Positions 9,156 to 53,300 of a stretch of 64,000 bases of DNA are shown here, in pieces. The notes beneath the pieces are model-generated. The model did no database searches. It saw only the letters and a list, made by a program, of their open reading frames with translations, and was not told where the DNA came from. Origin of the DNA: an uncultured Methanosarcinales archaeon (GTDB taxonomy: Archaea > Nanobdellota > Nanobdellia > Woesearchaeales > GW2011-AR4); assembly GCA_964454865.1 (NCBI GenBank), contig CAYVTQ010000001.1, positions 3,554 through 67,553 on the forward strand. Reading direction: 5' to 3'. A program made the translations under genes and the position numbers. Positions within the stretch are counted from its first letter, which is position 1, and every line of letters starts with the position of its first letter.

Positions 9156-9184
9156 GCTCTTTCAATAATCTTAGGAGTATAGGA

Positions 9185-28232: not shown

Positions 28233-29178
28233 ACCATTTTGCAGTAATGCCAATTCCCTTTTCCAGGCTTGTTCCCGGTTTGTATCCCAATTTTTTAATC
28301 TTTGCAATGTCGGGGCACCGCCTCAGCACGCTCCCTTTCTTCAGGCTTCCGGGCTCGACAATCACATCTTTCCCGAAATATTTGCCGACTTCCTTGGCAA
28401 CATCTTCTATTGAGGCTTCATCCATTGTCCCTATATTATAGGTCTCCAAATGCTTTCCTTTTTTCAGTACCAGCATAAGTCCGTCAATAAAATCATCAAT
28501 GTATACAAAAGCCCTCATTTCCCTTCCAGTGCCCTCAATCGGAAATTTTACCGGATTCTTATTATTGCTCCTGCATATTTCCTTCATGCGCAGAACAAAC
28601 TGGGGGATTGCGTGCTCCCATCCCATATTGGGGCCGTATACATTATGAGGCCTGAAGATTATCACCCTGTCAAAATATTTTCTGCCGTAGTTTATCGCCA
28701 TGATCTCGCTGATTATCTTGCCGCCGGCATAGGAATATCTGGGATTGAGAGGATCAGGTATGGACAGAGGCACTGTTTCATCTGTAGGGATTGCATCCGG
28801 CTTCTGATACACTTCAGAGCTTGAAGCCAGCAGCAGCTCTTTGACTTTGTTCCTGATGCAGCCGTCAATGACATTTATAATTCCCTTTACGCCGACGTCC
28901 AAAACCAATTCCGGCATTTTATAAAAAAATTCCGTCCCGTTGATAAAAGCCAGATGAAAAACACCGTCAATATCCTTGCAGGCGGCATTCACAGCATTTG
29001 CGTCCCTTATGTCACCCTCCACAATCTCTATTTTACTTCCTATACCTCCTATTCGATCGAATGATCCCCTGGATGCATTATCCATGACCCTGACCTTATA
29101 CCCTTCCGCTATCAGGCGCCTGACAAGAGCGCTTCCGATAAATCCTGCCCCGCCTGTAACAAGATATTTTTTTGCCAT
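28198..29178 (-). CDS. NAD-dependent epimerase/dehydratase (extended SDR)
   Basis: VTGGAGFIGSAL Rossmann, YAGGK catalytic motif. Confidence 0.8.
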   Translation of the reverse strand: MAKKYLVTGGAGFIGSALVRRLIAEGYKVRVMDNASRGSFDRIGGIGSKIEIVEGDIRDANAVNAACKDIDGVFHLAFINGTEFFYKMPELVLDVGVKGIINVIDGCIRNKVKELLLASSSEVYQKPDAIPTDETVPLSIPDPLNPRYSYAGGKIISEIMAINYGRKYFDRVIIFRPHNVYGPNMGWEHAIPQFVLRMKEICRSNNKNPVKFPIEGTGREMRAFVYIDDFIDGLMLVLKKGKHLETYNIGTMDEASIEDVAKEVGKYFGKDVIVEPGSLKKGSVLRRCPDIAKIKKLGYKPGTSLEKGIGITAKWYDENASKKPTG

Positions 29179-34672: not shown

Positions 34673-37600
34673 ATGGAAGATAAAAAGGATGATGATATAA
34701 CTATAGACTTTGGCAAGATGTGGGGTTCATTAAAGAGTCATGCGAAACTTTCTGCTGAGCCGGAAGATAAGAAGGGGGCAAATCCCGCTCAAAGCGAATC
34801 TGGCTCAAAAGACGCAAATTCTAATGCGGAGACTTCAAAGAAAAAAGATGCGGATTATATCAATCTGGATTTCAGCAAAATCAGGAAATTCTTCAAATCG
34901 GATGAAAGGGAAGGCGAAAAACTCCATGCCGCTGAAAATAGGCAAAATGAAGATGAAGTCATCCTCAATTTTTCGGGTTTTAAGAAAAAAGTCAGCGAGG
35001 CATTTACGGCTGATAAAGGGAAAGAGCAGAGGGACGAAACTGTAATTGATATCAAGAGCATAATCCCTTTTTTTAAGAAATATGCATGGCTATTTGCAGT
35101 GATTATACCCATTGTGCTGTCAATTTATATTAGGATGCAGTCTGCGAATCTGCCGATAATTGACCAGTGGGCAGCCAATACTGTGATTAATTCAGCAAGG
35201 TCCCAGATACAGTCACAAATAGATGCCCAGTATCCCAATCTTCCGCAAGCCAATAAAAACACAATATTGGAATCGGAGCTTCAAAAATTTTTGGTCCAGA
35301 ACAAAGCGCAGGTTGAACAGCAGATGGCTGGGACATCAAGCTATTTAAAATCTTTTTTTCAGGATGAAAGCGGCAAAATCTATATGCCGGATATAGATCC
35401 CTACTACTGGTACAGGTATGCAAAAAATATTATTGAAAAGGGATATCCGGGAGATGAGGTAAGAGATGGCGTGCAGTGGGATAATCATCAGGAGGCTCCT
35501 TTAGGCAGGCCTATACAGGCAGACATGTTTCATTCTTACTTCCTTGCTTATCTCTACAAAGCGCTGCATATTTTCAATTCAGGCATCACTCTAATGAGCT
35601 CTACGATGTATTATCCTGTCCTAGTGTCTGCTTTGGCTGTTTTGCTGGCTTTTTTGATAGGAAGAAAGGTATGCGGCAATGTGGGCGGATTTTTTTCTGC
35701 GCTTATGATGGCTGTAAACTCTTCTTTCATGGGAAGGACATTGTTCGGCCATGCAGATTCTGATGCATGGATTGTCCTATTTTCTTTGCTGATAGCATGG
35801 CTGACGCTCGAGTTTTTTGAGAGCAAAAATAAGCTTACGGGCATAGCCTTGGCTGTTGCTGCAGGATTTCTGGCCGGAGTCTTCAGCATAACATGGTCCG
35901 GATGGTTTTTCATAACTGAATTTATTTTTGGCGTGGCCGGAGTCAACATATTATATCATGCAATTCAAGAAATCAGGAAAGAAGGGAGAATCAATTTCAG
36001 CAAAATTATCAGCAATAGCCAAATTAAAAATATGGTTTTACTTGCAGCAGTGTTTTTTGTTTCAGTCGGGGCTTTTGTGACTTTATTCAATAATTTCAAT
36101 GCATTCAGGAGCTCGCTTCTTCCTTTCTCTTTCATAACTATAAAGGAGCCTGTAAGGTTTGGAAGCCTTTGGCCAAATGTGCTGACGACAGTGGCTGAGC
36201 TTAACGAGGGCTCTTATAATCAGGTCATTAATTCTATTGGCGGGAGATTCTTGTGGTATGTAGGGCTGCTGGGCGTTCTGCTCACTTTGCTCAAGAAAAA
36301 TCACGACGGCAAAACAGATATCAAATATTTTGTTTTGTTGAGCGTGTGGATTGCCGCTTCTGTTTATGCTTCATTAAAAGGCATAAGGTTCACAATCCTA
36401 ATATCGCCTGCATTCAGCATTGCTTTCGGCTCGGCTTTGGGGTTTGCATACCTGTATTTTTCCAAATGGCTGAATAAGGAATTGCACATACACAGAGGGA
36501 TTTCCGGCACTGTGCTCATTGTAGTCTTTACATTGCCCTATATAAGCGCCATTAATGCCTCTATAGATGCCGCGGGCGGGGATATTCCATTAATAAATGA
36601 TGCATGGTACAACTCCCTGATAAAAATTAAGGAAAACTCCAATCCTAATGCAATAATAACCTCATGGTGGGATTTCGGGCACCACTTTAAGGCATTAGCT
36701 GACAGGCCTGTAACTTTTGATGGAACCACCCAGGAAAAGCCCGATGCCCATTGGGTAGGAAGGCTTTTTATGACTAGCGATGAGGCAGAAGCTATAGGAA
36801 TTTTAAGAATGATTGACTGCGGCCAAAATAACGCCTATTGGACCCTGCTTAAGGAAAAAGGCCAGGACATCCACTCCTCAATAAACACTGTCAGGAGAAT
36901 AATTTTAATGGATAAAGAGAGCGCAAGAAGGGAGCTAATAAGAATAGGGGTCTCTGAAGATAAGGCTGAAGAAATCCTGAAGAGCAGCCATTGCACTCCG
37001 CCGGAAGCTTTTGCCATAGCTTCAGATGATATGATAGGCAAAAGCGGCGTCTGGGGCCACTTTGGAAGCTGGAATTTTGAAAGGGCGGATATATGGTTCA
37101 ATACAAAAGATAAGGCGATTGATGATGCAGTACAATATATGCAGGATAAATTCAACTATACCAGAGAGAGAGCAGAAAGCATATACTTTGAGATTCAGTC
37201 CCTCAGCACCCCTAGCGATGCCAATGCATGGATAGCGCCATGGCCAGGCTATGGCGGCACAATCAAGTGCAGCAGAAAGTCTTTGAACGAATCTTTGCTT
37301 CAATGCGATAACAGCTTCCAGATAAATCTCACCAATATGGATGCATTTGCATTGGGGCAGCAGGGAATTGTAAGGCCTAAGCTGTTTGCTTATCCTTCAG
37401 AAAAAGGAATCAATATCAAGGAGTTTGGAAGCAATACTGTCGGTCTTGGATTTACCTTAGTGCCGAAAAGCCAAAATGAGTTTGAGGTCGTATTATCCAG
37501 CCCAGAATTGGCAGGCAGCATGTTTACGAGAATGTTCTATATGAATGGGTACGGCTTAAAATATTTTAAACAATTTAGCAATGAGAGGGGATATACCGGA

Positions 37601-37705
37601 ACAAATGTTTATGTATACAAGGTAGACTGGGAAGGCAAAAACATGACACTCTCCAATGACTACCTCAATTATATGAAAGTTGGAGATGAACTGCCGGACA
37701 AATAA
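34673..37705 (+). CDS. aglB: Archaeal oligosaccharyltransferase AglB (STT3 family)
   Basis: WWDFG (WWDYG-type) motif at SWWDFGHH, multiple N-terminal TM helices, 1010 aa with large C-terminal soluble domain; roughly 130-aa hydrophilic N-terminal extension. Confidence 0.9.
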   Translation: MEDKKDDDITIDFGKMWGSLKSHAKLSAEPEDKKGANPAQSESGSKDANSNAETSKKKDADYINLDFSKIRKFFKSDEREGEKLHAAENRQNEDEVILNFSGFKKKVSEAFTADKGKEQRDETVIDIKSIIPFFKKYAWLFAVIIPIVLSIYIRMQSANLPIIDQWAANTVINSARSQIQSQIDAQYPNLPQANKNTILESELQKFLVQNKAQVEQQMAGTSSYLKSFFQDESGKIYMPDIDPYYWYRYAKNIIEKGYPGDEVRDGVQWDNHQEAPLGRPIQADMFHSYFLAYLYKALHIFNSGITLMSSTMYYPVLVSALAVLLAFLIGRKVCGNVGGFFSALMMAVNSSFMGRTLFGHADSDAWIVLFSLLIAWLTLEFFESKNKLTGIALAVAAGFLAGVFSITWSGWFFITEFIFGVAGVNILYHAIQEIRKEGRINFSKIISNSQIKNMVLLAAVFFVSVGAFVTLFNNFNAFRSSLLPFSFITIKEPVRFGSLWPNVLTTVAELNEGSYNQVINSIGGRFLWYVGLLGVLLTLLKKNHDGKTDIKYFVLLSVWIAASVYASLKGIRFTILISPAFSIAFGSALGFAYLYFSKWLNKELHIHRGISGTVLIVVFTLPYISAINASIDAAGGDIPLINDAWYNSLIKIKENSNPNAIITSWWDFGHHFKALADRPVTFDGTTQEKPDAHWVGRLFMTSDEAEAIGILRMIDCGQNNAYWTLLKEKGQDIHSSINTVRRIILMDKESARRELIRIGVSEDKAEEILKSSHCTPPEAFAIASDDMIGKSGVWGHFGSWNFERADIWFNTKDKAIDDAVQYMQDKFNYTRERAESIYFEIQSLSTPSDANAWIAPWPGYGGTIKCSRKSLNESLLQCDNSFQINLTNMDAFALGQQGIVRPKLFAYPSEKGINIKEFGSNTVGLGFTLVPKSQNEFEVVLSSPELAGSMFTRMFYMNGYGLKYFKQFSNERGYTGTNVYVYKVDWEGKNMTLSNDYLNYMKVGDELPDK

Positions 37706-38464: not shown

Positions 38465-39658
38465 ATGGGAAGAAAAGTTCTTGTCCTGACATCCACATTT
38501 CCAAGATGGGCTAAGGATTCAACATCAGTTTTTGTCTATGAGCTTAGCAGAAGGCTTGCGGAATACGGGAATAATATCCTGGTTTTGGCGCCTCATCATC
38601 ATGGCGCTGAGCACACCCAAAGGATGGGGCAGTTAACCATAATAAGATTCAGGTATTTCGTGCCGGAGAGGCTGCAGAAGCTCGCTTATGGGGCAGGAAT
38701 CATTCCGAATATGAAGAGCAGCTGGCTTGCAAAATTGCAGGCTCCTTTTTTTCTAATCACCGGTCTCATTGCCGCAGGAAATGCCGCAAGGCATTTTAAG
38801 CCGGAACTTATCCATGCCCACTGGATCATTCCCCAGGGGCTTGCTGCAGCCGTTCTTAAGAAAATGCTCGGAATACCCTTTATAGCGACGGTGCATGGCA
38901 GCGACCTATTCCCCATAACCAACCCCCTACTTAAGAGCCTTCAGCATTTCGTGCTGAAAAACTGCGACATTTGCACCGTAAACAGCAAAGCGACTGAAAA
39001 GGAAATCATGAAAAGGTTTCCCGATGCCGGAAAAAAGATTTTGACTATACCTATGGGAGTTGATGTCCGGGAATTTTCATCAAAAAAGCGTAAGAAAAAG
39101 AAGGGTTTTACCGTGCTTTTTGTCGGAAGGCTGAATGAGCAGAAAGGGATAAAATATTTGATAGCTGCCATGAGCATAGTTAAGCTTAGCCATCCAAAAG
39201 CAAGGCTTGTTGTCATAGGAGAGGGAGATTATATGGAGGAAATGAAAGATCTCGCCAAATCGCTGAAGATATCGGGCAGCGTGGAGTTTCTTGGAGGCCT
39301 GCCGCATGGCGAGGTTATAAATCATTATATTGCTGCAGACTTATTTGTATTGCCTTCTGTAGAATCAAAAATGGGAACAGAAGGGCTGGGGTTGTCCATT
39401 CTGGAGGCGATGGCTGCCAAAGTTCCGGTTATAGGGACAAGCACAGGGGGAATAAAATATATCATCAAGGACGGGCATAACGGAATTCTTGCAAGGCAGA
39501 AGGATCCTGAGGATCTTGCCAGATGCATAACAAAATTGCTGGCTGACAGGAAATTGCGCGCTAAATGCACGGCCAACGCTTTTAAATTTGTGAGAGAGAA
39601 TTATACGTGGGTTTCTGTAGCGAGGAAATTTCAAAAATTATATGGGGGTGTCAAATGA
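38465..39658 (+). CDS. Glycosyltransferase family 4 (GT-B, group 1)
   Basis: C-terminal EGLGLSILEAMAAKVPVIGT (E-x7-E region) of GT4. Confidence 0.8.
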   Translation: MGRKVLVLTSTFPRWAKDSTSVFVYELSRRLAEYGNNILVLAPHHHGAEHTQRMGQLTIIRFRYFVPERLQKLAYGAGIIPNMKSSWLAKLQAPFFLITGLIAAGNAARHFKPELIHAHWIIPQGLAAAVLKKMLGIPFIATVHGSDLFPITNPLLKSLQHFVLKNCDICTVNSKATEKEIMKRFPDAGKKILTIPMGVDVREFSSKKRKKKKGFTVLFVGRLNEQKGIKYLIAAMSIVKLSHPKARLVVIGEGDYMEEMKDLAKSLKISGSVEFLGGLPHGEVINHYIAADLFVLPSVESKMGTEGLGLSILEAMAAKVPVIGTSTGGIKYIIKDGHNGILARQKDPEDLARCITKLLADRKLRAKCTANAFKFVRENYTWVSVARKFQKLYGGVK

Positions 39659-40716
39659 ACCTGCCGCTCAGAATGAGGCTTTTTGCCTACAGGATTTTAT
39701 CCACTCCGTATGGAAGAGTTATTTTGCGCATTTTTTCGCATTTAATTCATGCCAAGGGAATGGGGCTATTCAAGCAAGCTAGTGCCAAAAAGCCGTTTAT
39801 AGTTTCTATAACGATTGACACGGAATCCGGCTATGTGGATGCGGACGAAAGAAGAGTATGGCAGAATGAAAATCCGAGAGCTTTCATGGGGTTCTATAAA
39901 GGCATTAAAAACTGGAAGGACCTGTTCAGAAAATACGGCGTGAAATCCACATTTTTTGTGTCCACCCAATGCTTTGATTCAAATGGAAGCGACCATGAAA
40001 AAATAGCCTCAGCGCTTAACGAGGCTGTTTCAGAGGGGCACGAGATGGGACTTCACATGCACCCCGACAGCGACTTTGCGCTGCAGAAGGCTATCGGGAA
40101 AAAATTCAGCCGGACAAGCGCGATTTATTATGATACAGAAACAAAAAAGCAAATGATAATGGAAGCAAGGAAGATGCTGATTAAAAATATCAGGAACCTC
40201 AGGAAAGTTGTGAGCTTTAGATGGGGCAATTGGGGGCTTGACTCCGGAGCTGTTGAAGCGCTGCACCAGCTTGGCTTTGAAGTGGATTCTTCGGCCACTC
40301 CGGGAATAAAAGGGCATATCGGAGACGGAATGGATTATGACTGGGCGAATGTGGACAGCCATTACCCATGGCTTCTCTCCACAGGCAACTATAAAGACGT
40401 AAAGAAACCCGATTCAGGCGTATTGGAGCTGCCCATAGCGACTTTCAGCCTTTTAGGGCTGACGCTGCGCGCAGACCCTGTTAATCTTGAGCTGTTAAAA
40501 GGCTCCTTTGACTATTATTACAAGAACTCCGACAGGAGCAAAAAGCCTTTTGTGTTTGTAGTCATATCACACAGCCCCGAGTCTACATATATTGACGGGA
40601 GAAAAACCAAAGTTATAGTGACCATGGAGGATTTCATAAAGCATGCATCAAAGCGCGCTGATGTCAGATTCGTGCCTCTTGATGATGCAGCTCATTTCCT
40701 GCGGCAGGATACATAG
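39655..40716 (+). CDS. Polysaccharide deacetylase-like (CE4-type) protein
   Basis: TIDTE and HEMGLHMH (HxxxH) motifs; ATGA start/stop overlap with GT4 gene suggests translational coupling. Confidence 0.45.
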   Translation: MNLPLRMRLFAYRILSTPYGRVILRIFSHLIHAKGMGLFKQASAKKPFIVSITIDTESGYVDADERRVWQNENPRAFMGFYKGIKNWKDLFRKYGVKSTFFVSTQCFDSNGSDHEKIASALNEAVSEGHEMGLHMHPDSDFALQKAIGKKFSRTSAIYYDTETKKQMIMEARKMLIKNIRNLRKVVSFRWGNWGLDSGAVEALHQLGFEVDSSATPGIKGHIGDGMDYDWANVDSHYPWLLSTGNYKDVKKPDSGVLELPIATFSLLGLTLRADPVNLELLKGSFDYYYKNSDRSKKPFVFVVISHSPESTYIDGRKTKVIVTMEDFIKHASKRADVRFVPLDDAAHFLRQDT

Positions 40717-42238: not shown

Positions 42239-42285
42239 TGGCTCGTAGGAACAAAATACACTTTATATATGTTTCTTAATAGGTA

Positions 42286-42580
42286 GCTTTGTGTAAAAAG
42301 CAGGTTTGGCATCTTCATTTGCGGGCATCTTCAAAGATTCAAGCAGGCATGCTCGAACAAAGTTCGGCACCGCATGGGTGGAAAAGGAAATTGCAGCGGA
42401 GGAATCGTTGTTCCTCCTGACGTAGCAAACTTGTTTGCTACGCAATGGGAAACTACGGAGTAGTTACCGAAAATCCAATCAGGATTGTCTGTTGATTTTC
42501 GAGTATTTTTGCTTTATCGCTACACATCAAAATGCGAACTGATGCCAAAACCCGAGCAAAGCGAGTTTTTACACAAAGCC
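42286..42580. repeat. MITE-like repeat, family 3 copy a with about 30-bp imperfect TIRs (GGCTTTGTGTAAAAA...GGTTTGGCATC)
   Basis: Core about 90% identical to 57548..57705; contains two perfect hairpins. Confidence 0.65.
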
Positions 42581-42598
42581 TTAATAGGTAACAAAAAC

Positions 42599-42610
42599 CT
42601 TTATAAAAAA
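42599..42610 (+). promoter_or_regulatory. TATA-like box (TTTATAAAAAA) upstream of heptose operon
   Basis: 33-44 nt upstream of hddC ATG, just outside the repeat. Confidence 0.25.
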
Positions 42611-42642: not shown

Positions 42643-43428
42643 ATGCCAACCAAAGATTCAAAGCCGGAAGTGATAATTGTAGCGGGCGGGCTTGGCACAC
42701 GAATGGAGTCCCTGAGCAGGGATGTCCCAAAATGCCTTGTAAATCTGAATGGAAAGCCAATAATTCTCCATCAAATAGAATTTTTTAGGAGTAACGGCTA
42801 TACAAAGTTTGTTTTTTGCATTGGCCATCTGGGGGCTAAAATTAAGGAGTACTTCAAAGACGGGAGCCGGTTTGGAGTGGATATAATATATTCTGAAGAG
42901 AATGGCGCATTATTAGGCACTGCCGGATCAGTCAGATTAGCAAAAAGCCGCTTAAACAACACTTTCATTGTTTACTATGGGGACAGCCTCACTAATGAGG
43001 ATTTTGATGAAGTCCTTGATTTCCACAGGCAAAAAAACAGCGATTTCACTGTCGTCCTAAGGGAGCTGCCAAAGGATTATGCCAGCAGCAGCGTGATTGT
43101 GATGGATGATGATAACAGGATCAAGGCTTTTTTTGAAAAGCCCGGGAATGATGAGTTGAAATCGGGCATAAAAGGGAAAAAATACATAAATAACGGCATT
43201 TATTTTATAGAGCCGGAAATCCTGCAGGAGGTGCCGCCCAAAGCGAAATATGACTTCGGCGGGCAACTGATACCGAAATTGATTGAAAAAAACAGAAAGG
43301 TTTATGGTTATGTCAGCCATAAGCTATTTGCAGAAATTGGAAGGGTGGAAAAATTCGGGGAATTCGATAAAAAATTAAAGGGCGGCGGGATAGAAGATGG
43401 ATGGAAACAAAGCGGTTTTTTTAGATAG
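42643..43428 (+). CDS. hddC: Sugar-1-phosphate nucleotidyltransferase (D-glycero-alpha-D-manno-heptose-1-P guanylyltransferase-like)
   Basis: VIIVAGGLGTRM nucleotidyltransferase N-terminus; first gene of heptose operon. Confidence 0.7.
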   Translation: MPTKDSKPEVIIVAGGLGTRMESLSRDVPKCLVNLNGKPIILHQIEFFRSNGYTKFVFCIGHLGAKIKEYFKDGSRFGVDIIYSEENGALLGTAGSVRLAKSRLNNTFIVYYGDSLTNEDFDEVLDFHRQKNSDFTVVLRELPKDYASSSVIVMDDDNRIKAFFEKPGNDELKSGIKGKKYINNGIYFIEPEILQEVPPKAKYDFGGQLIPKLIEKNRKVYGYVSHKLFAEIGRVEKFGEFDKKLKGGGIEDGWKQSGFFR

Positions 43429-43951
43429 GGACGGGGTAATAAACCATGTTTGCTATCATGATGATAAGGGAATCTATAGCGCTACGAGTATGCAGGAGTT
43501 CAAAGTCCTGCCTAATGTAAAAAAAAACATCCGATCCTTAAAAGGCAAAGGATACAAAATAGTTGTAGTTTCGAATCAGCCTGGGATTGCTTTTGGATAT
43601 CTAAGCGAGCAAGAAGTCAGGAAAATAGATGAATTTATGAAAAATGAAATCGGCGTCGATGCTGTATATAACTGCCCGCATCACCCCAAATTCAAAAAAT
43701 GCAGCTGCAGGAAGCCAAAAGACGGCATGCTAAAGCAGGCTGCCAAAGATCTTAATATAGACTTGAGCAGGTCATTTATTGTGGGGGACAACCTGGCAGA
43801 TATAGCAGCAGGCAAAAAATGCAGGGAGACTTTTTTGGTTGCAAGAAAGATAACTGTAGATTTGCTAAACCTTATTGAAGACGAGGGAGTTAAGCCTACA
43901 CACATAGTAAAATCCTTGGAAGAGGCTGCAAGAAGAATATTATTGGGTTAG
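43397..43951 (+). CDS. gmhB: D,D-heptose 1,7-bisphosphate phosphatase
   Basis: FLDRDGVIN motif I, SNQ motif, CPHHP...CSCRKP zinc site typical of GmhB; 32-bp overlap with hddC. Confidence 0.85.
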   Translation: MDGNKAVFLDRDGVINHVCYHDDKGIYSATSMQEFKVLPNVKKNIRSLKGKGYKIVVVSNQPGIAFGYLSEQEVRKIDEFMKNEIGVDAVYNCPHHPKFKKCSCRKPKDGMLKQAAKDLNIDLSRSFIVGDNLADIAAGKKCRETFLVARKITVDLLNLIEDEGVKPTHIVKSLEEAARRILLG

Positions 43952-44035
43952 GGCTATAACAAATTTACACTATTTAAATCTTTCTACGAAACATTTATAT
44001 AAAGATTCTAAACACATAACCACGGGGAAAATAAG

Positions 44036-45040
44036 ATGATAATTACAAGGACTCCTCTTAGGATATCTTTAGGAGGAGGCGGCACTGATCTGCCTTTTTA
44101 CTGCTCCAAATTCGGCTCGTCCCTCATTACAGCAGCTATAAACAAGTATGTGTACATCACGGTCAGTAAAAGAGTCGAAAAATCAATAAAGATCAATTAT
44201 TCTAAAACTGAGATAGCAAATTCTATTGATGAAATAAACCATCCCCTGATAAGGGAGGCATTGAGGTTTGTAGATATAAACAATTCGATAGAAATCCACT
44301 CCGTAGGGGAGGTTGAAGCAGGGACAGGCTTGGGCTCGTCTTCAGTTTTTCTTGTGGGATTATTGAATGCCCTGTATTACTATAAAGGGGAGATTGTTTC
44401 AAAATACAAATTAGCTGAAGACGCATCGCATATTATGATGGAAATACTGAATGAATCCTGCGGCAAACAGGATCAATATGCAGCGGCATTCGGCAATCTG
44501 AACCATCTTAAAATAAACACCAGGGGGAGGGTAAATATATCCCCTGTAAACATAACTTATGAAAATCTCAAGGAATTGGAAAAGAACCTGATGATGTTTT
44601 ATACCGGATTCCGAAGAGACGCCAATGCCCTATTGAGCAATCAGAAAAAAATGGCGGAAAAAGGCGAGGATTCCTCTAAAAATGCAATTTTTGAGCATTA
44701 TCATGAGATTAAAAAAATAGGGATGGAAAGCCTGAAATGCATAGAGTCAGGGGACCTAAAAAGATTTGGCGAATGGATGAACATTCATTGGGAGCTCAAG
44801 CGGAAAATATCCGACAAGATGTCCAATTCGCAAATAGACAAGTGGTATAATGCTGCCCTTGATAATGGCGCTATCGGGGGAAAGATTGTGGGGGCCGGCG
44901 GAGGGGGCTTTCTTATGGTTTATGCCGACAAAAGCCATGATAAAATAGCCAAGGCCATGGAAAATGAAGGGCTGATCAAAATTAATTTTAAGTTTGATTT
45001 TGACGGGACAAGGATAGTGTATGACGGACTGCATTTTTAA
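44036..45040 (+). CDS. hddA: GHMP-family kinase (D-glycero-alpha-D-manno-heptose 7-phosphate kinase-like)
   Basis: TRTPLRISLGGGGTDL N-terminus and GLGSSS ATP-binding motif. Confidence 0.8.
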   Translation: MIITRTPLRISLGGGGTDLPFYCSKFGSSLITAAINKYVYITVSKRVEKSIKINYSKTEIANSIDEINHPLIREALRFVDINNSIEIHSVGEVEAGTGLGSSSVFLVGLLNALYYYKGEIVSKYKLAEDASHIMMEILNESCGKQDQYAAAFGNLNHLKINTRGRVNISPVNITYENLKELEKNLMMFYTGFRRDANALLSNQKKMAEKGEDSSKNAIFEHYHEIKKIGMESLKCIESGDLKRFGEWMNIHWELKRKISDKMSNSQIDKWYNAALDNGAIGGKIVGAGGGGFLMVYADKSHDKIAKAMENEGLIKINFKFDFDGTRIVYDGLHF

Positions 45041-45051
45041 TTGGAGGTTTT

Positions 45052-45657
45052 ATGGGGCATATTGAGTATATAACAACTTACTTTAAGGATATCAGGGAAA
45101 TTACCGAGCATATAAACAAAGAAGAGATCTCAAAAGCGATAGACATATTATTTGAAGCGTGGAAGAACGATCAAAATGTGTATTTTATAGGGTGCGGCGG
45201 AAGCGCAGGAACTGCATCGCATTTCGCAGCTGACCTTTCAAAGACCACTATTGTAAAGCCGAAAAAGAGGTTTAAGGCCCACTCTCTTGTTGACAATCCG
45301 TCCCTGATAACTGCATGGATAAATGATGATGGGTGGGAGTCTGTATTCAAGGAGCAGATTGAGAATTTCATAATGCCCGGCGATGTTGTTGTGGGGTTGA
45401 GCGTGCATGGCGGAAAAGGGAAGGGAAATTCCGGCGCATGGTCGCAAAATTTGACGCTGGCGATGGAGTATGCCAAGTACAAGGGAGGAAAATGCATCGG
45501 ATTGGCGGGCTTTGACGGAGGGGCATTCAAAGAGATATGCGATGCGTGCATAATTGTCCCAAAAGACTCGACGCCTTTGGTGGAGGGGTTTCATTGCGAC
45601 ATACAGCATTTAATAATCTTCAGGCTTAAAGAAATGATAAGCAGTTTTACCGATTAA
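45052..45657 (+). CDS. gmhA: Phosphoheptose isomerase (sedoheptulose-7-P isomerase)
   Basis: GCGGSAGTASHFAADL SIS motif, GFDGG. Confidence 0.85.
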   Translation: MGHIEYITTYFKDIREITEHINKEEISKAIDILFEAWKNDQNVYFIGCGGSAGTASHFAADLSKTTIVKPKKRFKAHSLVDNPSLITAWINDDGWESVFKEQIENFIMPGDVVVGLSVHGGKGKGNSGAWSQNLTLAMEYAKYKGGKCIGLAGFDGGAFKEICDACIIVPKDSTPLVEGFHCDIQHLIIFRLKEMISSFTD

Positions 45658-45680
45658 AACTGGGCAAAAGGTGCGTCAAA

Positions 45681-46355
45681 ATGGCAATTTTTTTGGATAC
45701 GGGAAATGTTGAAGTTGTTAAGAAATATATGAGCATGGGCATAATAAGGGGAGTTACTACTAATCCCACCATAATGCTGAAGTCTGGAGTGAGCGGCGGC
45801 TTAAATGGCATTAAAAAAATGGCTGTAGAGATTGCAAATCTTATTTCACCTCTGCCCTTGTCTGTCGAAGTTACAAATAATGAATACGAAGGCATGATTA
45901 AGCAGGCCATTGAGTTTTCCAAGTGGGCGAAGAATATCAACGTCAAAATAACCATTCACGGGCCAAATGGGGAGCTTCACAATTTAAGGGCTGTGCATGA
46001 GTTGGAGACAAAACATGACATAAGGGTGAATGTCACTGCAATGATGAGCGCCCAGCAATGCTTTTTGGCGGCTATGGCAGGCGCAACCTATGTGTCCCTG
46101 TTCTGCGGCAGAGTCAACAATATGGGCTATAATTCAATCGAAGAGATAAAAAAGCTGCGCAAGCTTCTGGACGATTTCCAATTGAGGTCAAAAATAATCT
46201 GCGGTTCTACAAGGGAAGTCCTGAACATCGTGGAATGGCTGGGGGCAGGAGCCCATATAGTGACTGCTGTTCCGGACTTGATTGAAGGGATGATTGTGCA
46301 CCCTTATAGCAAAGAAACAGTAAGGCAGTTTCTTGAGGATGCTGTTAAAATATAA
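45681..46355 (+). CDS. tal: Transaldolase (short TalC/FSA-type)
   Basis: GVTTNPT motif and catalytic Lys region; 224 aa. Confidence 0.8.
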   Translation: MAIFLDTGNVEVVKKYMSMGIIRGVTTNPTIMLKSGVSGGLNGIKKMAVEIANLISPLPLSVEVTNNEYEGMIKQAIEFSKWAKNINVKITIHGPNGELHNLRAVHELETKHDIRVNVTAMMSAQQCFLAAMAGATYVSLFCGRVNNMGYNSIEEIKKLRKLLDDFQLRSKIICGSTREVLNIVEWLGAGAHIVTAVPDLIEGMIVHPYSKETVRQFLEDAVKI

Positions 46356-46358
46356 CGC

Positions 46359-47084
46359 CTACTTTTTCTCACCATAAATCAATATGCTGGATCCCTGCCA
46401 CCTGAAAATGGGGATTTTTTCAAACAACTCGCTCAGAAAAACTGCAATTCCAATCAAAGGTCTCGGAGTAAACGCAAATGCAAAGCAAAATGGCCTTATC
46501 TTTATCCATTTTAATCTTTTACTTTCAAAAAAACATTTATATGCCGAAGGGGAATAAGAGTTTTCATTTGCCTTCCTGTTCCTCGGGGTCAATTCCAGTA
46601 ATTTTCTTGGCAGGCTTAAGCCATTCGCTTCGCATAAGAGAAAGTACTTTCCCGTCACTCTAAGCATTTCCTGCGCCATTTTTCCCGGATTATCAACATG
46701 GTGCATAGTATTGAAGCAGCAAACCATATCAAATGAATCCTCCTTAAAATCGAGAGAGGTGGCATCCATCTGCATGGCTTCAACGCCCTTGGCTTTGATT
46801 TTTTTGACGCCTTCCGGGGATAATTCAGTAGCAACATACCTCTTTGGATTTAATGCTTTTATTATCATGCTCGAGCTTACCCCATCGCCTGCTCCGATTT
46901 CAAGTATAGACATTTTTTTTAGGTTTTTGCCTTTAAGAAAATCTATTAGATAGTTCACTTCTTTTGGAACTCTGTAATACATTCCTATCCTGCCTTCCCA
47001 TTTTTCCCTGAAAGGAATGTCCGAGCTAAATAGCTCATCATAGTACTCTTTCATCACCCTCTTATTTTTTCCCTTCATATTCAT
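46359..47084 (-). CDS. Class I SAM-dependent methyltransferase
   Basis: ILEIGAGDG motif I. Confidence 0.7.
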   Translation of the reverse strand: MNMKGKNKRVMKEYYDELFSSDIPFREKWEGRIGMYYRVPKEVNYLIDFLKGKNLKKMSILEIGAGDGVSSSMIIKALNPKRYVATELSPEGVKKIKAKGVEAMQMDATSLDFKEDSFDMVCCFNTMHHVDNPGKMAQEMLRVTGKYFLLCEANGLSLPRKLLELTPRNRKANENSYSPSAYKCFFESKRLKWIKIRPFCFAFAFTPRPLIGIAVFLSELFEKIPIFRWQGSSILIYGEKK

Positions 47085-47110: not shown

Positions 47111-48052
47111 TCAACTCATCTCTTCCAATAGAGCTTTTACAGATTTTACAATAGCTTCACGAGAGCTATTTTTTGCCTTCCATCCAAGCTTATGCATTTT
47201 TGCAAGATCAAACCTTACAACAGGAACATCCCCTTTCCATCCCCTTTTCCCACCAGAATGCTCAAACCTGACATTTTTCAGGCTCATCTCATTGGCAACA
47301 ATTTTTGCAATGTCATTAACAGTTATATAGTCCTCCGTTGCTATATTAAAAATGTTTACTGTTTCATTGGAGTTATTGATAGCAAAAAATATCCCTTCTA
47401 TTACATCACTTATATGGATATAAGACTTGCTCTGGTTTCCGTCCCCAAGAATCTCCAGCCTCTTGGGGCTTGTTCCCAGCTTCCTGATAAAATCATACGC
47501 CACCCCATGAGTCTGCCTCTGCCCCACCACATTTGCAAAGCGGAATATCCAGGACTGCATGTCAAACATATGGCAAAATGCGCTTATTATTCCCTCACTG
47601 CCAAGCTTGCTTGCCCCATACATTGAAATTGGCAGCAATGGCCCAAAATCTTCAGGAGTCTCCACCAATCCAGCATCCCCGTAAATTCCGCTCCCGGAGG
47701 AAAAAACGATCTTTTTTATGCCGTTTATCCTCATTGATTCAACCGCATTATAAGTGGATATTATGCCAAGGCGCAAATCCAAGTCCGTTTCCACCATGCT
47801 CTTTGCTATATCTGCATTGGCTGCCAAGTGGAAAACCATATCATGATTCTTCATGGATTTGACAAGGCTCTCCTTGTCAAGCAAGTCTCCATTTATGCAC
47901 CTGAATAGAGGATTTTTAGAGTGATGGCTTATAAAATCTTCCCTGCCGCTGCTGAAATTATCATAAACAGTAACGCTGTGCTTTTGACTTATCAGAAAAT
48001 CAGCCAGATTGCTGCCGATAAATCCCGCGCCGCCCGTTATGAAGTATTTCAT
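47111..48052 (-). CDS. NAD-dependent epimerase/dehydratase (UDP-sugar 4-epimerase-like)
   Basis: ITGGAGFIGSNL Rossmann, YGASK catalytic motif. Confidence 0.8.
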   Translation of the reverse strand: MKYFITGGAGFIGSNLADFLISQKHSVTVYDNFSSGREDFISHHSKNPLFRCINGDLLDKESLVKSMKNHDMVFHLAANADIAKSMVETDLDLRLGIISTYNAVESMRINGIKKIVFSSGSGIYGDAGLVETPEDFGPLLPISMYGASKLGSEGIISAFCHMFDMQSWIFRFANVVGQRQTHGVAYDFIRKLGTSPKRLEILGDGNQSKSYIHISDVIEGIFFAINNSNETVNIFNIATEDYITVNDIAKIVANEMSLKNVRFEHSGGKRGWKGDVPVVRFDLAKMHKLGWKAKNSSREAIVKSVKALLEEMS

Positions 48053-48053
48053 T

Positions 48054-48776
48054 TTAAATTGCCCTTAGCTTCAAGCTGAAAATCTCAAAAAAAGCCCTGC
48101 ACAGCTTGAAGGGTATTTTTTCTATGGGGAGAGCGACACTTTTTTTGTAAGTATGGTTAACCGGCACCTGGCCATACCTGTATCCCATCTTTTTTGCATA
48201 TATGAACGTTTCAGCATTATAAGCCACAGTCAAACTGCCTGTCAGCGGTATAATTTTTTTTACCGCTTCATTCTTAATTATCCTAAAACCGCAATTAGAG
48301 TCCCTCAGCCATACATTAAACAGCACTCCCATCAGCATATTATTTATTCTTGAAACAAAAACCCTGTAGTAAGGCTTCCTGTTGATTTTGTAGCCCACCA
48401 CTAAGTCTAGACTGTTATTTATAATCTTGTCCCATAATAACCAGAAATCTGACGGCTTATGCTCCCCGTCAGAATCAGTAAAAAATATATATTCTCCTTT
48501 TGCCTGCATATATATTTCCTTAACGGCTTGTATGTACCCCCTCCTATGCTCGCAAAGGTTTAAATCGAGATCGTACTTCTTTTGTATGCTCCTGAGAATC
48601 TCCCTGGTATTGTCCCTGCTGCCGTCTTCCGCAATGATAACTTCAGCCTCACCCAGCCCCAACTTCCTGAATTTTTGGATTATTTTATTATTAATCTCAC
48701 TAATTAGTTCTTCAATCTTTTCGTTCTCATAAACAGGCATGAGTATTGACAATTTTATCTTTTTTTTAATCGCCAT
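48054..48776 (-). CDS. Glycosyltransferase family 2
   Basis: LSILMPVYNE start, DSD motif. Confidence 0.75.
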   Translation of the reverse strand: MAIKKKIKLSILMPVYENEKIEELISEINNKIIQKFRKLGLGEAEVIIAEDGSRDNTREILRSIQKKYDLDLNLCEHRRGYIQAVKEIYMQAKGEYIFFTDSDGEHKPSDFWLLWDKIINNSLDLVVGYKINRKPYYRVFVSRINNMLMGVLFNVWLRDSNCGFRIIKNEAVKKIIPLTGSLTVAYNAETFIYAKKMGYRYGQVPVNHTYKKSVALPIEKIPFKLCRAFFEIFSLKLRAI

Positions 48777-48907: not shown

Positions 48908-50221
48908 CTATTCCAATTTAACACCATGCCCCTTTATTTTCTTTGCAAGCTCAAATGCGTGCCTTATCACAGCATCGGTATTGAGATATTCAAATTCCGC
49001 AAATCTTCCGCACAGGTGTATTCCGATTGAATCAAAATATTCCCTTATCATCCTGAGCTTGTCAAGATAGCCAATAGTATTGACGACATACCCGTATCTC
49101 GCATTGACCAAATCAGTTTCACAGACCTCCTTTGAATCAATAAATCCTTCCTGCTCCATTGTATCGATTACATGGTGTATCAATTCTTCATTAGGCATTC
49201 CGGATATCCTGTCTCCGGGATAATAAGTAAATTCCGCAGTTATTGTGTGCTTGCCCGGGGGAGCATGATCGGCATTCAAGAATGTATAAAAGCATAGCCT
49301 ATGATAAAGCGTATTTTCAGATGGAATGTATATGCCAAATTTATCCGTAAATTTTATCTTGTTTAGCCCTATCATTACTACAATAACTCCATTATACCTC
49401 AAAGAATGAATTGCATCGGCAATCTTCTGAGGCGCGCCGGCAAGGCAGCCCAGCAATTCCGGCAGGGGCATTGTGGAAATAATTTGGTCGTACTTCTTCT
49501 CGCTTTTGCCGTCTGAAACTACCCACCCGTCCCTGCTTTTTATGATTTTTTTGACCTTGTAATTCAGAACGACATTTTTTACATCTTTCCCCAGCGCCAA
49601 GACAAGGCTCTCAATGCCTCCTCTTTCAGGATACCAGAAATTAAGCTGATGGGTATATCCTTCAGTGGATATTCCAATTGCAGATTTTATTATATCCTCG
49701 GCAGGAGGCTTTGGCACCCTGCCTTCAACCCAGTCCAGCCCAAGCTCCGAAGGATCCATCTTCCATATCTTTTTGTTGTAGGGTATGAGGTATTTTTCCG
49801 CTATTCCTTTTCCGAATGTGTAGTATATCCACTCTTTAAAATTAGCTCTTGGAGGAGGAGAATCATTATTAAAGAAATGCAAGAGGCATTCAAAAAGATC
49901 TCCTTTGTCAAGCTCATTAAGCCCATTCTCAAAAGGATATTTTATGAAATTTTTTTTGAACCATATCTTGTTGTTTCTATAATGGCTTTTTATATTACCC
50001 TGCTGTTTTTTTAGCATGAATCTCAGTATATCCTTGTCTTTGGAGAAGATTATATGGCCGCCCATATCATAGCTGAAGCCGTTCTTTTTCTTTGTTTTGC
50101 AATGCCCCCCTATCCTGCTGAATTCTTCAAGAATTTCATACTCGGAGTCTCCCAGAAAATATGCTGCAGATATGCCTGCCAGCCCCCCTCCAAGTATCCC
50201 TATCTTCATGGATTTTAGCAA
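48908..50221 (-). CDS. FAD-dependent oxidoreductase, UDP-galactopyranose-mutase/amine-oxidase-like
   Basis: GILGGGLAGISAA dinucleotide-binding motif, YNKKIW segment reminiscent of UGM; 437 aa. Confidence 0.5.
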   Translation of the reverse strand: MLKSMKIGILGGGLAGISAAYFLGDSEYEILEEFSRIGGHCKTKKKNGFSYDMGGHIIFSKDKDILRFMLKKQQGNIKSHYRNNKIWFKKNFIKYPFENGLNELDKGDLFECLLHFFNNDSPPPRANFKEWIYYTFGKGIAEKYLIPYNKKIWKMDPSELGLDWVEGRVPKPPAEDIIKSAIGISTEGYTHQLNFWYPERGGIESLVLALGKDVKNVVLNYKVKKIIKSRDGWVVSDGKSEKKYDQIISTMPLPELLGCLAGAPQKIADAIHSLRYNGVIVVMIGLNKIKFTDKFGIYIPSENTLYHRLCFYTFLNADHAPPGKHTITAEFTYYPGDRISGMPNEELIHHVIDTMEQEGFIDSKEVCETDLVNARYGYVVNTIGYLDKLRMIREYFDSIGIHLCGRFAEFEYLNTDAVIRHAFELAKKIKGHGVKLE

Positions 50222-52592: not shown

Positions 52593-53300
52593 TTAACAAG
52601 ACATGGCAAAGAAATTTGACAATCCATGCTTTATCGGATTGAAGCAAATCAGCTCATTAAACCATATCTTTATGTATCCTAATAAGGGTATTCTCAATAC
52701 TGCCTTGCCTATGACATGGCTTTCATTAATGCTCGTTTCATCCATTGTGCTGTCTTTTATCGAAGCCTTGTTATGGTCGCCTTTTGTGTGAAAGAAATAA
52801 TCCCCCCCATTATCCTGCCATTTCCGGACTACCCTGTGAATGATGGGATCCGGCTTTGTGCTTCTGAAGACTATAACACTTCCAGCTTTAATTTCTGCCG
52901 GATTGGCGCCTTTCAGCACCATGATATCTCCCTTATTAAATCCGTTTTTGAACCTAAATCTGCTGAACTGCTCCTTGGTTATGCCAATCTGCTCATACCA
53001 GTCTCCGCACATTTCCCAATAGTCATCATAACCTATCCTTTTTTTCGCATCAAATTCCTTCCCGCATAAAACCATCCTGTTCCTGAAATCGGGGCTTGCG
53101 CTGTGCTCCATGCTCTCAGACACGACAGCGACAACAGGATGGGTAGTCTGGAGAAAAAAGCCCAGCCCCGGGTAGACTATGAACTTGATAAGCACAAAGG
53201 CAAGAACTACATTTACAAGCCAGCTCCATACGCTGTCATCTTCCCATATAAACTTCCAGATTTTTTTCAGAGTCTTCTTAAAATCACCAGCCATGCTCAA
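52593..53300 (-). CDS. Signal peptidase I (archaeal/Sec11-type S26 family)
   Basis: N-terminal TM anchor, SESME (Ser box), IHRVV (His box), TKGDHN box E. Confidence 0.75.
   Translation of the reverse strand: MSMAGDFKKTLKKIWKFIWEDDSVWSWLVNVVLAFVLIKFIVYPGLGFFLQTTHPVVAVVSESMEHSASPDFRNRMVLCGKEFDAKKRIGYDDYWEMCGDWYEQIGITKEQFSRFRFKNGFNKGDIMVLKGANPAEIKAGSVIVFRSTKPDPIIHRVVRKWQDNGGDYFFHTKGDHNKASIKDSTMDETSINESHVIGKAVLRIPLLGYIKIWFNELICFNPIKHGLSNFFAMSC

Follow-up and report, generated by a model that had tools for sequence, protein, structure and literature searches.

A predicted alpha-type NDP-heptose operon that includes a transaldolase in a Woesearchaeota glycan island

A five-gene operon of a DPANN archaeon (42643-46355, plus strand; positions are those of the window, the whole 64,000-nucleotide stretch of DNA analysed) most likely converts central sugar phosphates to an activated seven-carbon sugar for surface glycans. 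We consider it quite probable that the operon encodes an alpha-type NDP-heptose pathway, with GDP the most likely nucleotide and a neighbouring SDR probably modifying the product. The transaldolase (TAL) would form sedoheptulose-7-P from fructose-6-P and erythrose-4-P, the GmhA-like isomerase would convert this to heptose-7-P, and the HddA-type GHMP kinase would phosphorylate it at C1 in the alpha configuration. The GmhB-type phosphatase would then remove the 7-phosphate, leaving the RmlA/GMPP-fold nucleotidyltransferase (NT) to make the NDP-heptose, most likely with GDP. The adjacent SDR, of the GDP-sugar 4-epimerase family, would probably alter this product further, and glycosyltransferases of the ~44-kb glycan island would use it, plausibly for AglB-dependent N-glycans. 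We infer every enzymatic activity in this scheme from what can be read directly: gene content, protein families, synteny, gene fusions and catalytic motifs.

Genes and enzymes of the operon

All five ORFs were confirmed and are co-directional, in the order NT, phosphatase, kinase, SIS protein and TAL. The first two overlap by 32 nt and the gaps that follow are 84, 11 and 23 nt, in keeping with the tight or overlapping spacing described in the initial annotation, whose quoted motifs (VIIVAGGLGTRM, DRDGVIN, CPHHPKFKKCSCRKP, LGGGGTDL and GCGGSAGTASHFAADL) are all present in the translations. A TATA-like box read from the sequence, TTTATAAAAAA (42600..42610, plus strand), lies 33-43 nt 5' of the NT start codon and is a candidate archaeal promoter for the operon. 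The top match of each protein is a heptose or transaldolase family, except for the NT, where it is one among several. Together with the synteny in 26 other loci, these family matches make the heptose operon more than a chance grouping, and they agree with the earlier proposal that four of its genes span isomerase, 1-kinase, 7-phosphatase and nucleotidyltransferase.

The kinase (44036..45040, plus strand, 334 aa) is of the HddA/WcbL type, as had been suggested. HddA (NF049969) was its best NCBIfam match at 172 bits, with fucokinase second at 91, and in the PDB it matched 3k85, 4n3o and 4usk at 3e-42 to 4e-40 (about 1e-40), whereas fuco-, galacto- and mevalonate kinases scored only about 1e-13. 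Relatives with 55-72% identity carry the name HddA at JGI; at NCBI, relatives are called merely 'galactokinase'. The phosphatase (43397..43951, plus strand, 184 aa), a predicted heptose 1,7-bisphosphate 7-phosphatase of the HAD-IIIA group, exceeds the cut-offs of TIGR01662 (107.8 vs 44.6) and TIGR01656 (123.7 vs 84.15), and its best equivalog is GmhB NF006506. The best PDB match was E. coli GmhB 3l8e (1.6e-21), with which its zinc-site and HAD motifs align (DxDGxxN, SNQ, CxH...CxCRKP, GDxxxD). Among GmhB HMMs the 'beta' model scored above the 'alpha' model, a result that is uninformative as to the anomer but lends the alpha reading no support.

The SIS_2 protein (45052..45657, plus strand, 201 aa) is GmhA-like, as first annotated, and not GlmS/KpsF-like: gmhA (TIGR00441) was the best NCBIfam match at 90 bits, with DiaA at 36.7, and C. 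jejuni GmhA 1tk9 the best in the PDB (1.9e-20). It would convert sedoheptulose-7-P to heptose-7-P as a member of a divergent subfamily. Both active-site histidines are retained, while Asp replaces the catalytic Glu, Glu replaces Gln172/175 and the phosphate-binding loop carries a 9-aa insertion; the stereochemistry of the product is therefore not guaranteed. The next gene (45681..46355, plus strand, 224 aa; PF00923, 129.8 bits) does encode a transaldolase, of the short TalC/archaeal type, the predicted supplier of sedoheptulose-7-P. Its best PDB match was the T. acidophilum transaldolase 3s0c (1.3e-32), and the equivalents of Asp6, Glu60, Lys86 and Phe132 are conserved (FLDTGN, SVEV, VKI, SLFCGR).

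None of the proteins reached the NCBIfam equivalog cut-off (HddA 172/600, gmhA 90/209, GmhB 137.6/178, HddC 88/300, TAL 153/246). This is weak counter-evidence, because members of the cluster from Bacilli, Lachnospiraceae and Thermoplasmata fail them too. The alpha anomer is predicted from fold classes: a GHMP kinase and a PF00483 NT stand in place of the PfkB and cytidylyltransferase-fold pair of the beta route. The alpha-anomer part of the initial reading is well supported by the sequences; its GDP part is only a prediction, the HddC model being only the fifth-best NT match. The window also holds a separate beta-type kinase/isomerase pair elsewhere (12256-13846), with a PfkB/HldA-like kinase at 12256-13302; both this second module and the SDR had been overlooked.

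Conservation and genomic context

The gene set was found again in 26 other loci, 9 archaeal and 17 bacterial. Three loci from other sequencing runs, independently assembled, have the identical arrangement, including the 32-nt overlap. The order NT-GmhB-HddA-GmhA-TAL occurs in three further loci and in part in six more, and the 17 bacterial loci have the order HddA-(SDR)-NT-GmhB-GmhA. Homologous four-gene sets are present in Bacillota, Saccharimonadia and Omnitrophica, and a Thermoplasmata MAG (locus L016) carries a homologous cluster of a fused NT-GmhB, HddA and GmhA. The TAL gene lies 3' of GmhA in 7 of the 9 close archaeal loci and in none of the 17 bacterial ones; as an operon member, transaldolase is confined to the archaeal operons.

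Top6A and Top6B (60597-63306), the latter 87% identical to Woesearchaeota proteins, place the host in the DPANN (Woesearchaeota) archaea, and with AglB on the same contig they bear out an archaeal host. AglB (34673..37705, plus strand; STT3 domain, 147.6 bits; WWDFG motif), the candidate user of the glycan, ends 4.9 kb upstream of the operon, matching the distance of 5 kb first given. An AglJ-like Dol-P GT2, a GT4, another GT2 and WecB are also nearby. Use of the heptose by AglB is plausible from this proximity.

Downstream of the operon lies a convergent unit on the minus strand. It comprises a SAM-dependent methyltransferase (46359..47084; assigned from methyltransferase families), the SDR (47111..48052) and, upstream of the SDR, a GT2 glycosyltransferase (48054-48776) and a FAD amine-oxidase/UGM-like flavoprotein (48908-50221). 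The position of the methyltransferase beside the heptose genes makes O-methylation of the sugar possible. The SDR-flavoprotein pair is also conserved in L015, a Woesearchaeota locus, where it adjoins the heptose genes.

The activated sugar and alternative readings

The NT (42643..43428, plus strand, 261 aa; PF00483, 111.6 bits) is predicted to take the HddC-like last step, from heptose-1-P and NTP to NDP-heptose. Its homologues adjoin GmhB, HddA and GmhA in more than 20 loci, and many of them form part of NT-GmhB fusion proteins of 415-450 aa, with up to 52% identity to the window NT. Its top NCBIfam match was Man-1-P guanylyltransferase (120 bits, below the cut-off) and its best PDB match 8x7s (5e-42), with Yersinia HddC at 3e-16. 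The SDR, a candidate NDP-heptose-modifying enzyme, matches 3ehe at 5e-88 and 8rdg at 2e-86, is 47-48% identical to PhGal4E_1 and 3EHE and is sister to archaeal GDP-sugar 4-epimerases in an NJ tree. The heptose-linked SDR homologues form one family with these two enzymes (40-50% identity), and PhGal4E_1-type enzymes are an archaeal GDP-preferring subgroup (PMC12171764). As an SDR of this family travels with these operons, a modified heptose may be what the pathway finally delivers. The link between this type of SDR and heptose is new and is drawn from the sequences.

That the incorporated sugar is an epimer made by the SDR, with the manno-heptose nucleotide a mere intermediate, is a serious possibility, though not the outcome we would expect. 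The epimer would be D-glycero-D-talo-heptose or a Thermoplasma-like D-glycero-D-galacto-heptose, possibly with a change at C2 through the divergent GmhA; the GmhA subfamily does deviate at two catalytic or metal positions, but the C2 part is pure speculation. SDR homologues adjoin or sit inside HddA-type operons in 11 loci, the window SDR retains YxxxK, N174, H182 and RGWKGD, and D-glycero-D-galacto-heptose occurs in the N-glycans of T. acidophilum, with an HddA-type cluster in the Thermoplasmata MAG. However, the window SDR belongs to a separate unit transcribed from the other strand, about half of the loci are without such an SDR and the literature describes no GDP-heptose 4-epimerase. Two of the four PhGal4E_1 residues that matter, P80 and R83 of loop R, are Ala/Ala in the window SDR, with N-[A/S]-D-[I/V] in all heptose-linked homologues. 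A nucleotide other than GDP on the alpha-heptose is unlikely. It is favoured by 8x7s, deposited as a UTP-glucose-1-P uridylyltransferase, which is much closer to the NT than is Yersinia HddC; 8x7s shares the NT's NCBIfam profile, in which Man-1-P guanylyltransferase ranks first, and the nucleotide therefore cannot be read from homology. CDP- and UDP-heptose, moreover, were also found among the products of archaeal beta-heptose NTases. We infer GDP only indirectly, from the guanylyltransferase match and the co-travelling SDR, whose family favours GDP-sugars, and GDP-heptose is the product of every characterised HddA-linked pathway cited (PMC10680097).

More radical readings fare worse. The missed cut-offs, the 'galactokinase' names and the catalytic divergence of the GmhA-like protein could mean that the true substrate is some other sugar phosphate, be it of a hexose, an octose or an unrelated ketose, and that the enzymes resemble HddA, GmhA and GmhB at family level only. 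We regard this as very unlikely: kinase, SIS protein and phosphatase each independently match heptose-specific families best, a bisphosphate 7-phosphatase paired with a ketose-aldose isomerase fits only a sugar phosphorylated at both ends, the product of the operon's transaldolase is sedoheptulose-7-P, and the Bacillota four-gene set looks like classical S-layer heptose clusters. Less credible still is a bacterial contaminant or recent bacterial transfer unrelated to archaeal glycobiology. Although bacteria have the homologous four-gene sets noted above, the contig carries Top6A/B and AglB, the GC content of the window is uniform, several runs independently assembled the same arrangement, and the closest relatives (60-76% identity) are all from archaeal MAGs, bacterial ones being about 40% identical. 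The alpha-type NDP-heptose pathway remains our preferred reading.

Comparison with known heptose systems

In its four enzyme classes and in its reaction logic from sedoheptulose-7-P, the operon resembles the GmhA-HddA-GmhB-HddC route characterised in C. jejuni (PMC10680097), with the kinase matching the C. jejuni (4n3o) and WcbL (4usk) enzymes and the isomerase closest to C. jejuni GmhA. In contrast to that route, it is found in a DPANN archaeon, includes a transaldolase and has a GmhA with altered catalytic residues and a loop insertion. Its NT is nearer to GMPP/CugP-like enzymes than to HddC, its nucleotide is a predicted one, and its proteins score far under the equivalog cut-offs. The SDR was compared with the archaeal GDP-sugar 4-epimerases PhGal4E_1 of Pyrococcus horikoshii (8RDG/8RDH), A. 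fulgidus 3EHE and P. calidifontis 3AW9; it differs from PhGal4E_1 at P80 and R83, important there by mutagenesis.

The initial annotation held that heptose-containing archaeal glycans had not been characterised, but the N-glycan of Thermoplasma acidophilum includes D-glycero-D-galacto-heptose (PMC11407970, PMC12448462). Archaea therefore do put heptose into AglB-type N-glycans, although the lineage of the window's host differs from that of T. acidophilum, as does the predicted heptose isomer. To our knowledge, the biosynthetic genes for the T. acidophilum heptose have not been assigned.

Heptose gene clusters were reported earlier for Iplasma and M. maripaludis, and archaeal beta-heptose enzymes have been assayed. 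The beta route likewise starts from sedoheptulose-7-P through GmhA and GmhB, with published archaeal examples, but its kinase is PfkB and its NT has the cytidylyltransferase fold, in place of the GHMP kinase and the RmlA-fold NT of the window operon. Heptose in archaeal glycans, archaeal heptose clusters and the JGI HddA labels on these kinases were thus already known. The new details are the transaldolase gene, an operon member in the archaeal loci only, the Glu-to-Asp and Gln-to-Glu changes in GmhA and the second, beta-type pair in the same window.

The operon and its proteins

The putative heptose operon comprises five genes on the forward strand: a nucleotidyltransferase (NT, 42643-43428), a HAD phosphatase of GmhB type (43397-43951) that overlaps the NT gene by 32 nt, a GHMP kinase (44036-45040) after a gap of 84 nt, a SIS protein (45052-45657) after a gap of 11 nt, and a TAL/FSA-family protein (45681-46355) after a gap of 23 nt. 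ORF translation recovered all five where the initial annotation had placed them, with every motif that it quoted. The arrangement, including the 32-nt overlap, was also found in independent assemblies from several sequencing runs (L001-L003), and is therefore not an assembly artefact. A TATA-like box 33-43 nt 5' of the NT start codon is a candidate promoter.

Topoisomerase VI subunits A and B are encoded at 60597-63306, and host taxonomy was taken from the relatives of Top6B. This protein is 87% identical to Candidatus Woesearchaeota proteins, and its top relatives are all from Woesearchaeota or Nanoarchaeota. The window belongs to a 74-kb contig and is otherwise represented only in short metagenome contigs. 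Together with the even GC content throughout the window, this identifies the host as an uncultured DPANN archaeon. Rfam searches of the whole window and the intergenic region, and a tRNA scan, returned no matches.

We scanned species-representative genomes and found 27 loci with a related kinase, then ran the window proteins against them by tblastn. In the window and in most of 26 related loci the HddA-type kinase is accompanied by GmhA, GmhB and a sugar-1-phosphate NT. The order NT-GmhB-HddA-GmhA-TAL is present in L012, L013 and L014 and partial in L007-L011 and L015, all of these (L007-L015) from MAGs labelled Nanoarchaeia, Woesearchaeota, 'Methanosarcinales' or 'archaeon'; in these archaeal loci the kinase is 62-70% identical to that of the window, GmhA 65-75% and the transaldolase (TAL) 58-72%. 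A TAL gene lies 3' of GmhA in seven of the nine close archaeal loci. No bacterial locus has it there, and 17 bacterial loci show the order HddA-[SDR]-NT-GmhB-GmhA. In many relatives of the NT a GmhB domain is fused to the enzyme (415-450 aa, up to 52% identity), which by Rosetta-stone logic ties the two steps to one pathway.

The kinase has two GHMP domains (PF00288, 44.2 bits; PF08544, 42.2 bits), and its translation contains GTGLGSSS, LGGGGTD and GAGGGGF, a PxGxGLxSSA-type motif and glycine-rich loops. Its best NCBIfam is HddA (NF049969, 172 bits), with fucokinase second at 91. In the PDB, heptokinases (3k85, 4n3o and 4usk/WcbL; E 3e-42 to 4e-40) stood far ahead of fuco-, galacto- and mevalonate kinase structures (1e-13 or weaker). 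The protein is thus not closest to galacto- or mevalonate kinases, in keeping with the initial annotation; by sequence it is an HddA-type kinase, with a predicted heptose-7-phosphate 1-kinase activity.

The SIS protein (SIS_2 domain PF13580, 46.2 bits) has gmhA as its best family (TIGR00441, 90 bits; DiaA 36.7), and its best PDB matches are GmhA throughout, which places it nearer to GmhA than to GlmS or KpsF. The catalytic residues of GmhA are Glu65 and His180 (E. coli numbering), and its zinc and active-site set comprises His64, Glu68, Gln175 and His183 (B. pseudomallei numbering). Aligned with the C. jejuni and B. pseudomallei enzymes, the window protein keeps both histidines, with Asp replacing the catalytic Glu and Glu replacing Gln172/175. 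This Asp/Glu pair, in which HxxxE becomes HxxxD, is common to all 24 aligned HddA-linked SIS proteins, archaeal and bacterial, drawn from L007-L033 (DPANN, Thermoplasmata, Bacillota and Saccharimonadia). It therefore marks a subfamily and not a degenerate copy, and the HddA-linked SIS proteins form a distinct, apparently uncharacterised branch of GmhA. The clade of the window protein also has a nine-residue insertion in the phosphate-binding loop, SVHGGKGKGNSGAWSQN; this Gly/Lys-rich stretch is an extra feature of the DPANN/'Methanosarcinales' SIS proteins.

The phosphatase passes the cut-offs of TIGR01662 (107.8 against 44.6) and TIGR01656 (123.7 against 84.15), which describe HAD-IIIA, histidinol-phosphatase-like proteins. 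Its DxDGxxN, SNQ, CxH...CxCRKP and GDxxxD motifs align with E. coli GmhB, the zinc-binding CxH...CxC loop, CPHHPKFKKCSCRKP, aligning to CPHHPQ...CDCRKP. The best equivalog is the beta-type GmhB model (NF006506, 137.6; cut-off 178), and the alpha model gives 104.9 (NF050049; cut-off 250). We rejected these two models as a test of anomer. The HddA-linked fusion protein of a Thermoplasmata MAG (L016) likewise ranks beta above alpha, so the HMMs do not report the anomer.

The fifth protein (PF00923, 129.8 bits) is closest to the T. acidophilum transaldolase TacTAL (3s0c, 1.3e-32), with FSA structures at 4e-18 or weaker. In the TacTAL and FSA literature the TAL_FSA active site consists of a Schiff-base Lys with an Asp and a Glu, and a Phe in TAL or a Tyr in FSA discriminates between the two. 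Aligned to 3s0c, the window protein conserves D6, the Glu of SVEV, the Lys of VKI and the Phe of SLFCGR. By these features it is a short TalC/archaeal-type transaldolase, as first proposed.

All five operon proteins miss the curated NCBIfam equivalog cut-offs, the kinase at 172 against 600 bits (NF049969), the SIS protein at 90 against 209 (TIGR00441) and TAL at 153.4 against 246 (TIGR00875). We rejected these cut-offs as a test of membership, as proteins from homologous clusters in Bacilli, Lachnospiraceae, Saccharimonadia and Thermoplasmata miss them too: their kinases score 162-191 bits on NF049969. The SIS homologues of L025 and L016, at 103-115 bits, are also below the TIGR00441 cut-off. 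The curated models are thus narrow, and missing them says little. The altered active site of the SIS protein is a weightier reservation about membership.

The nucleotide and the neighbouring putative epimerase

The NT consists of a single PF00483 domain and has a GGxGTR(L/M) loop; such genes are found beside or fused to GmhB/HddA. Its top NCBIfam is the mycobacterial-type Man-1-P guanylyltransferase (120 bits), which might be read as pointing to GDP. We rejected that argument. Among solved structures, by far the nearest is 8x7s (5e-42; Yersinia HddC 3e-16), deposited as a UTP-glucose-1-phosphate uridylyltransferase, and a scan of its aligned part gave a ranked family list identical to that of the window NT, Man-1-P guanylyltransferase first. 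As the two have the same profile, family-level similarity cannot assign the nucleotide. 8x7s may resemble cyanobacterial CugP; a literature search on the structure returned no matches. The pathway in the initial annotation, a transaldolase with an alpha-type NDP-heptose, is largely borne out. Its GDP is unproven: on the HddC model (NF049965) the NT scores 88 bits, at rank five and below the cut-off of 300. We nevertheless think GDP the probable nucleotide, on indirect support from a neighbouring SDR gene.

That gene (47111-48052, reverse strand) encodes a protein of the Gal4E family, with PDB matches to A. fulgidus 3EHE (5e-88) and P. horikoshii PhGal4E_1 (8RDG, 2e-86, 47% identity), members of an archaeal 4-epimerase subgroup that prefers GDP-sugars (PMC12171764). 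In a neighbour-joining tree it is sister to PhGal4E_1/3EHE, and the heptose-linked SDRs and the characterised GDP-Gal4Es form one family (40-50% identity), which shares only 24-29% identity with the remaining SDRs of the window. Members of the family occur in heptose loci L007, L010, L011, L014, L015, L017-L020 and L030, lying directly 5' of NT in L007 and L014 and between HddA and NT in L017-L020 and L030.

The window SDR has high overall similarity to PhGal4E_1 and retains the catalytic YxxxK, N174 and H182; the heptose-linked SDRs keep YxxxK, H182 and RGW-GD. They differ in loop R, whose residues P80 and R83 (PhGal4E_1 numbering) have been described (PMC12171764) and are replaced by N-[A/S]-D-[I/V]. 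The window protein reads NADIAK in place of NPEVRI, and P80 is absent in all heptose-linked homologues.

It seems likely that the nucleotide-heptose is modified further wherever the SDR is present. One-enzyme 4-epimerisation of GDP-heptose is absent from the 20 characterised Campylobacter heptose enzymes (PMC10680097). The recurrence of these SDRs within heptose operons suggests that the promiscuous archaeal GDP-sugar 4-epimerases may act on GDP-heptose in the cell, and the link would offer a concrete physiological substrate for enzymes known only as 'promiscuous'.

A FAD amine-oxidase/UGM-like flavoprotein is encoded nearby (48908-50221, reverse strand; PRK07208 family, 167.8 bits; a weak match to UDP-galactopyranose mutase). 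A flavoprotein of this kind (3942-5168 in L015, another Woesearchaeota locus) is conserved next to the SDR beside the heptose genes. The flavoprotein is a candidate pyranose/furanose mutase or sugar-nucleotide oxidase.

The surrounding glycan island

The operon is enclosed by a roughly 44-kb glycan island that spans about 8.5-52.3 kb of the window. Besides AglB and numerous SDRs, the island encodes several glycosyltransferases, WecB, an AglJ-like Dol-P GT2, a nucleotide-sugar dehydrogenase, two DegT aminotransferases and two TylC3-like sugar C-methyltransferases (9140-10465 and 26961-28307), together with a NodU-like carbamoyltransferase (22041-23801) and a HAD+GNAT fusion (24742-25803). The oligosaccharyltransferase AglB (34673-37705; PF02516 STT3, 147.6 bits; WWDFG as the WWDxG motif) was correctly placed upstream of the operon, its end lying 4.9 kb 5' of NT, and a PMT_2/GT-C-like membrane protein (32882-34348) lies directly ahead of it. 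The stretch 8580-34348 is gene-dense, with a WbuC cupin, an APH-like kinase, the two DegT aminotransferases, four SDRs, an SGNH esterase and the nucleotide-sugar dehydrogenase, a content that is unusually rich for a DPANN genome.

The island contains a second heptose-type module on the forward strand. It consists of a PfkB kinase (12256-13302), whose best family is RfaE/HldE domain I and whose sole solved relative is HldA (4e84), and an overlapping GmhA-like SIS gene of the HxxxD/E type (13283-13846; gmhA, 110.7 bits). No HldC-type NT for this module (12256-13846) was seen in the window. The adjoining ORF (13843-14445, reverse strand) has no family match; its N-terminal DxD motif, GVDFDNT, suggests a HAD-like phosphatase. 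A split transketolase follows on the reverse strand (TK-C 15486-16412, TK-N 16409-17284) amid sugar-modification genes, adjoined by a Zn-ADH and the two DegT aminotransferases, and might instead be a sugar-branching ThDP enzyme.

These elements can be assembled into one wider reading, which we offer tentatively and think unlikely to hold as a whole. The HddA-type operon and the Gal4E-family SDR would produce a GDP-heptose epimer (D-glycero-D-talo- or -galacto-heptose), GDP-heptose being the long-sought physiological substrate of the epimerase family. In PPP-poor DPANN cells TAL, with the split transketolase beside the second module, would mainly feed sedoheptulose-7-phosphate (S7P) to surface glycans, and alpha and beta routes would run in parallel in a single island.

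The 404-nt region between the operon and a divergent GT2 gene holds a 294-bp MITE-like element, bounded by imperfect terminal inverted repeats of 23 nt (42286-42308 and 42557-42579) and with hairpins in its interior (42406-42457). An 11-bp direct repeat, CTTAATAGGTA, stands on either side (42275-42285 and 42580-42590). The independent contigs L002 and L003 both begin within it, at window position 42552. We had considered a 14-nt operator shared by the divergent promoters, which the terminal inverted repeats and direct repeat explain better; the window shows no enrichment of this 14-nt motif, three hits being reached in 15 of 100 shuffles. A search for additional copies of the element, both in the window and in JGI metagenome contigs, found none.

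Four ORFs of the window had no Pfam or NCBIfam match at the thresholds used: 57781-60132 (783 aa), 52593-53300 (235 aa) and 1249-1959 (236 aa) on the reverse strand, and 39607-40716 (369 aa) on the forward strand. The last lies inside the island, between a GT4 and a methyltransferase gene.

Archaeal precedent and comparison with known pathways

The initial annotation regarded heptose-containing archaeal glycans as uncharacterised, which the literature contradicts. The N-glycan of T. acidophilum membrane proteins includes heptose (PMC11407970), specifically D-glycero-D-galacto-heptose, the basis for modelling Cuniculiplasma pilin glycans (PMC12448462). Heptose biosynthesis clusters have been noted both in 'Iplasma', a relative of the Thermoplasmata (PMC3750248), and in strains of Methanococcus maripaludis (PMC12667266), and a commentary (PMC11573728) credits Tang et al. 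(2024) with assays of archaeal beta-route heptose nucleotidyltransferases. Our literature search found no experiments on an archaeal alpha (HddA) route and no discussion of heptose for DPANN. A cluster in the Thermoplasmata MAG (L016, 4636-8992) combines HddA and GmhA-like genes with one for a GT2 glycosyltransferase and one for an NT-GmhB fusion of 450 aa, and is a candidate genetic basis of the Thermoplasma N-glycan heptose.

If the prediction holds, heptose in the surface glycans of archaea would gain a genetic basis; so far a single structure (Thermoplasma) is the example, and no alpha-route genes have been assigned. The HddA-type pathway would also be extended to uncultured archaea, DPANN and Asgard among them. 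The operon-encoded TAL points to a dedicated precursor supply where central metabolism is reduced. This TAL, the Asp/Glu GmhA subfamily, the GDP-Gal4E link and the coexisting alpha and beta modules are the distinctive features, and are testable. The chemistry itself is already known from bacteria, annotation pipelines already call these genes, and current knowledge is not overturned.

The characterised route from S7P proceeds through GmhA, HddA, GmhB and HddC (PMC10680097). The gene set of the window corresponds to it step for step, and the transaldolase would supply the S7P from F6P and E4P. It is thus largely supported that the operon is a divergent new example of a known pathway, to an alpha-type NDP-heptose with an added transaldolase, in an archaeal lineage that has received little study. 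In the beta route the kinase is of the PfkB type and the NT has the cytidylyltransferase fold. The operon has instead a GHMP kinase and an NT of the RmlA/GMPP fold, and from this difference in enzyme class we infer the alpha anomer.
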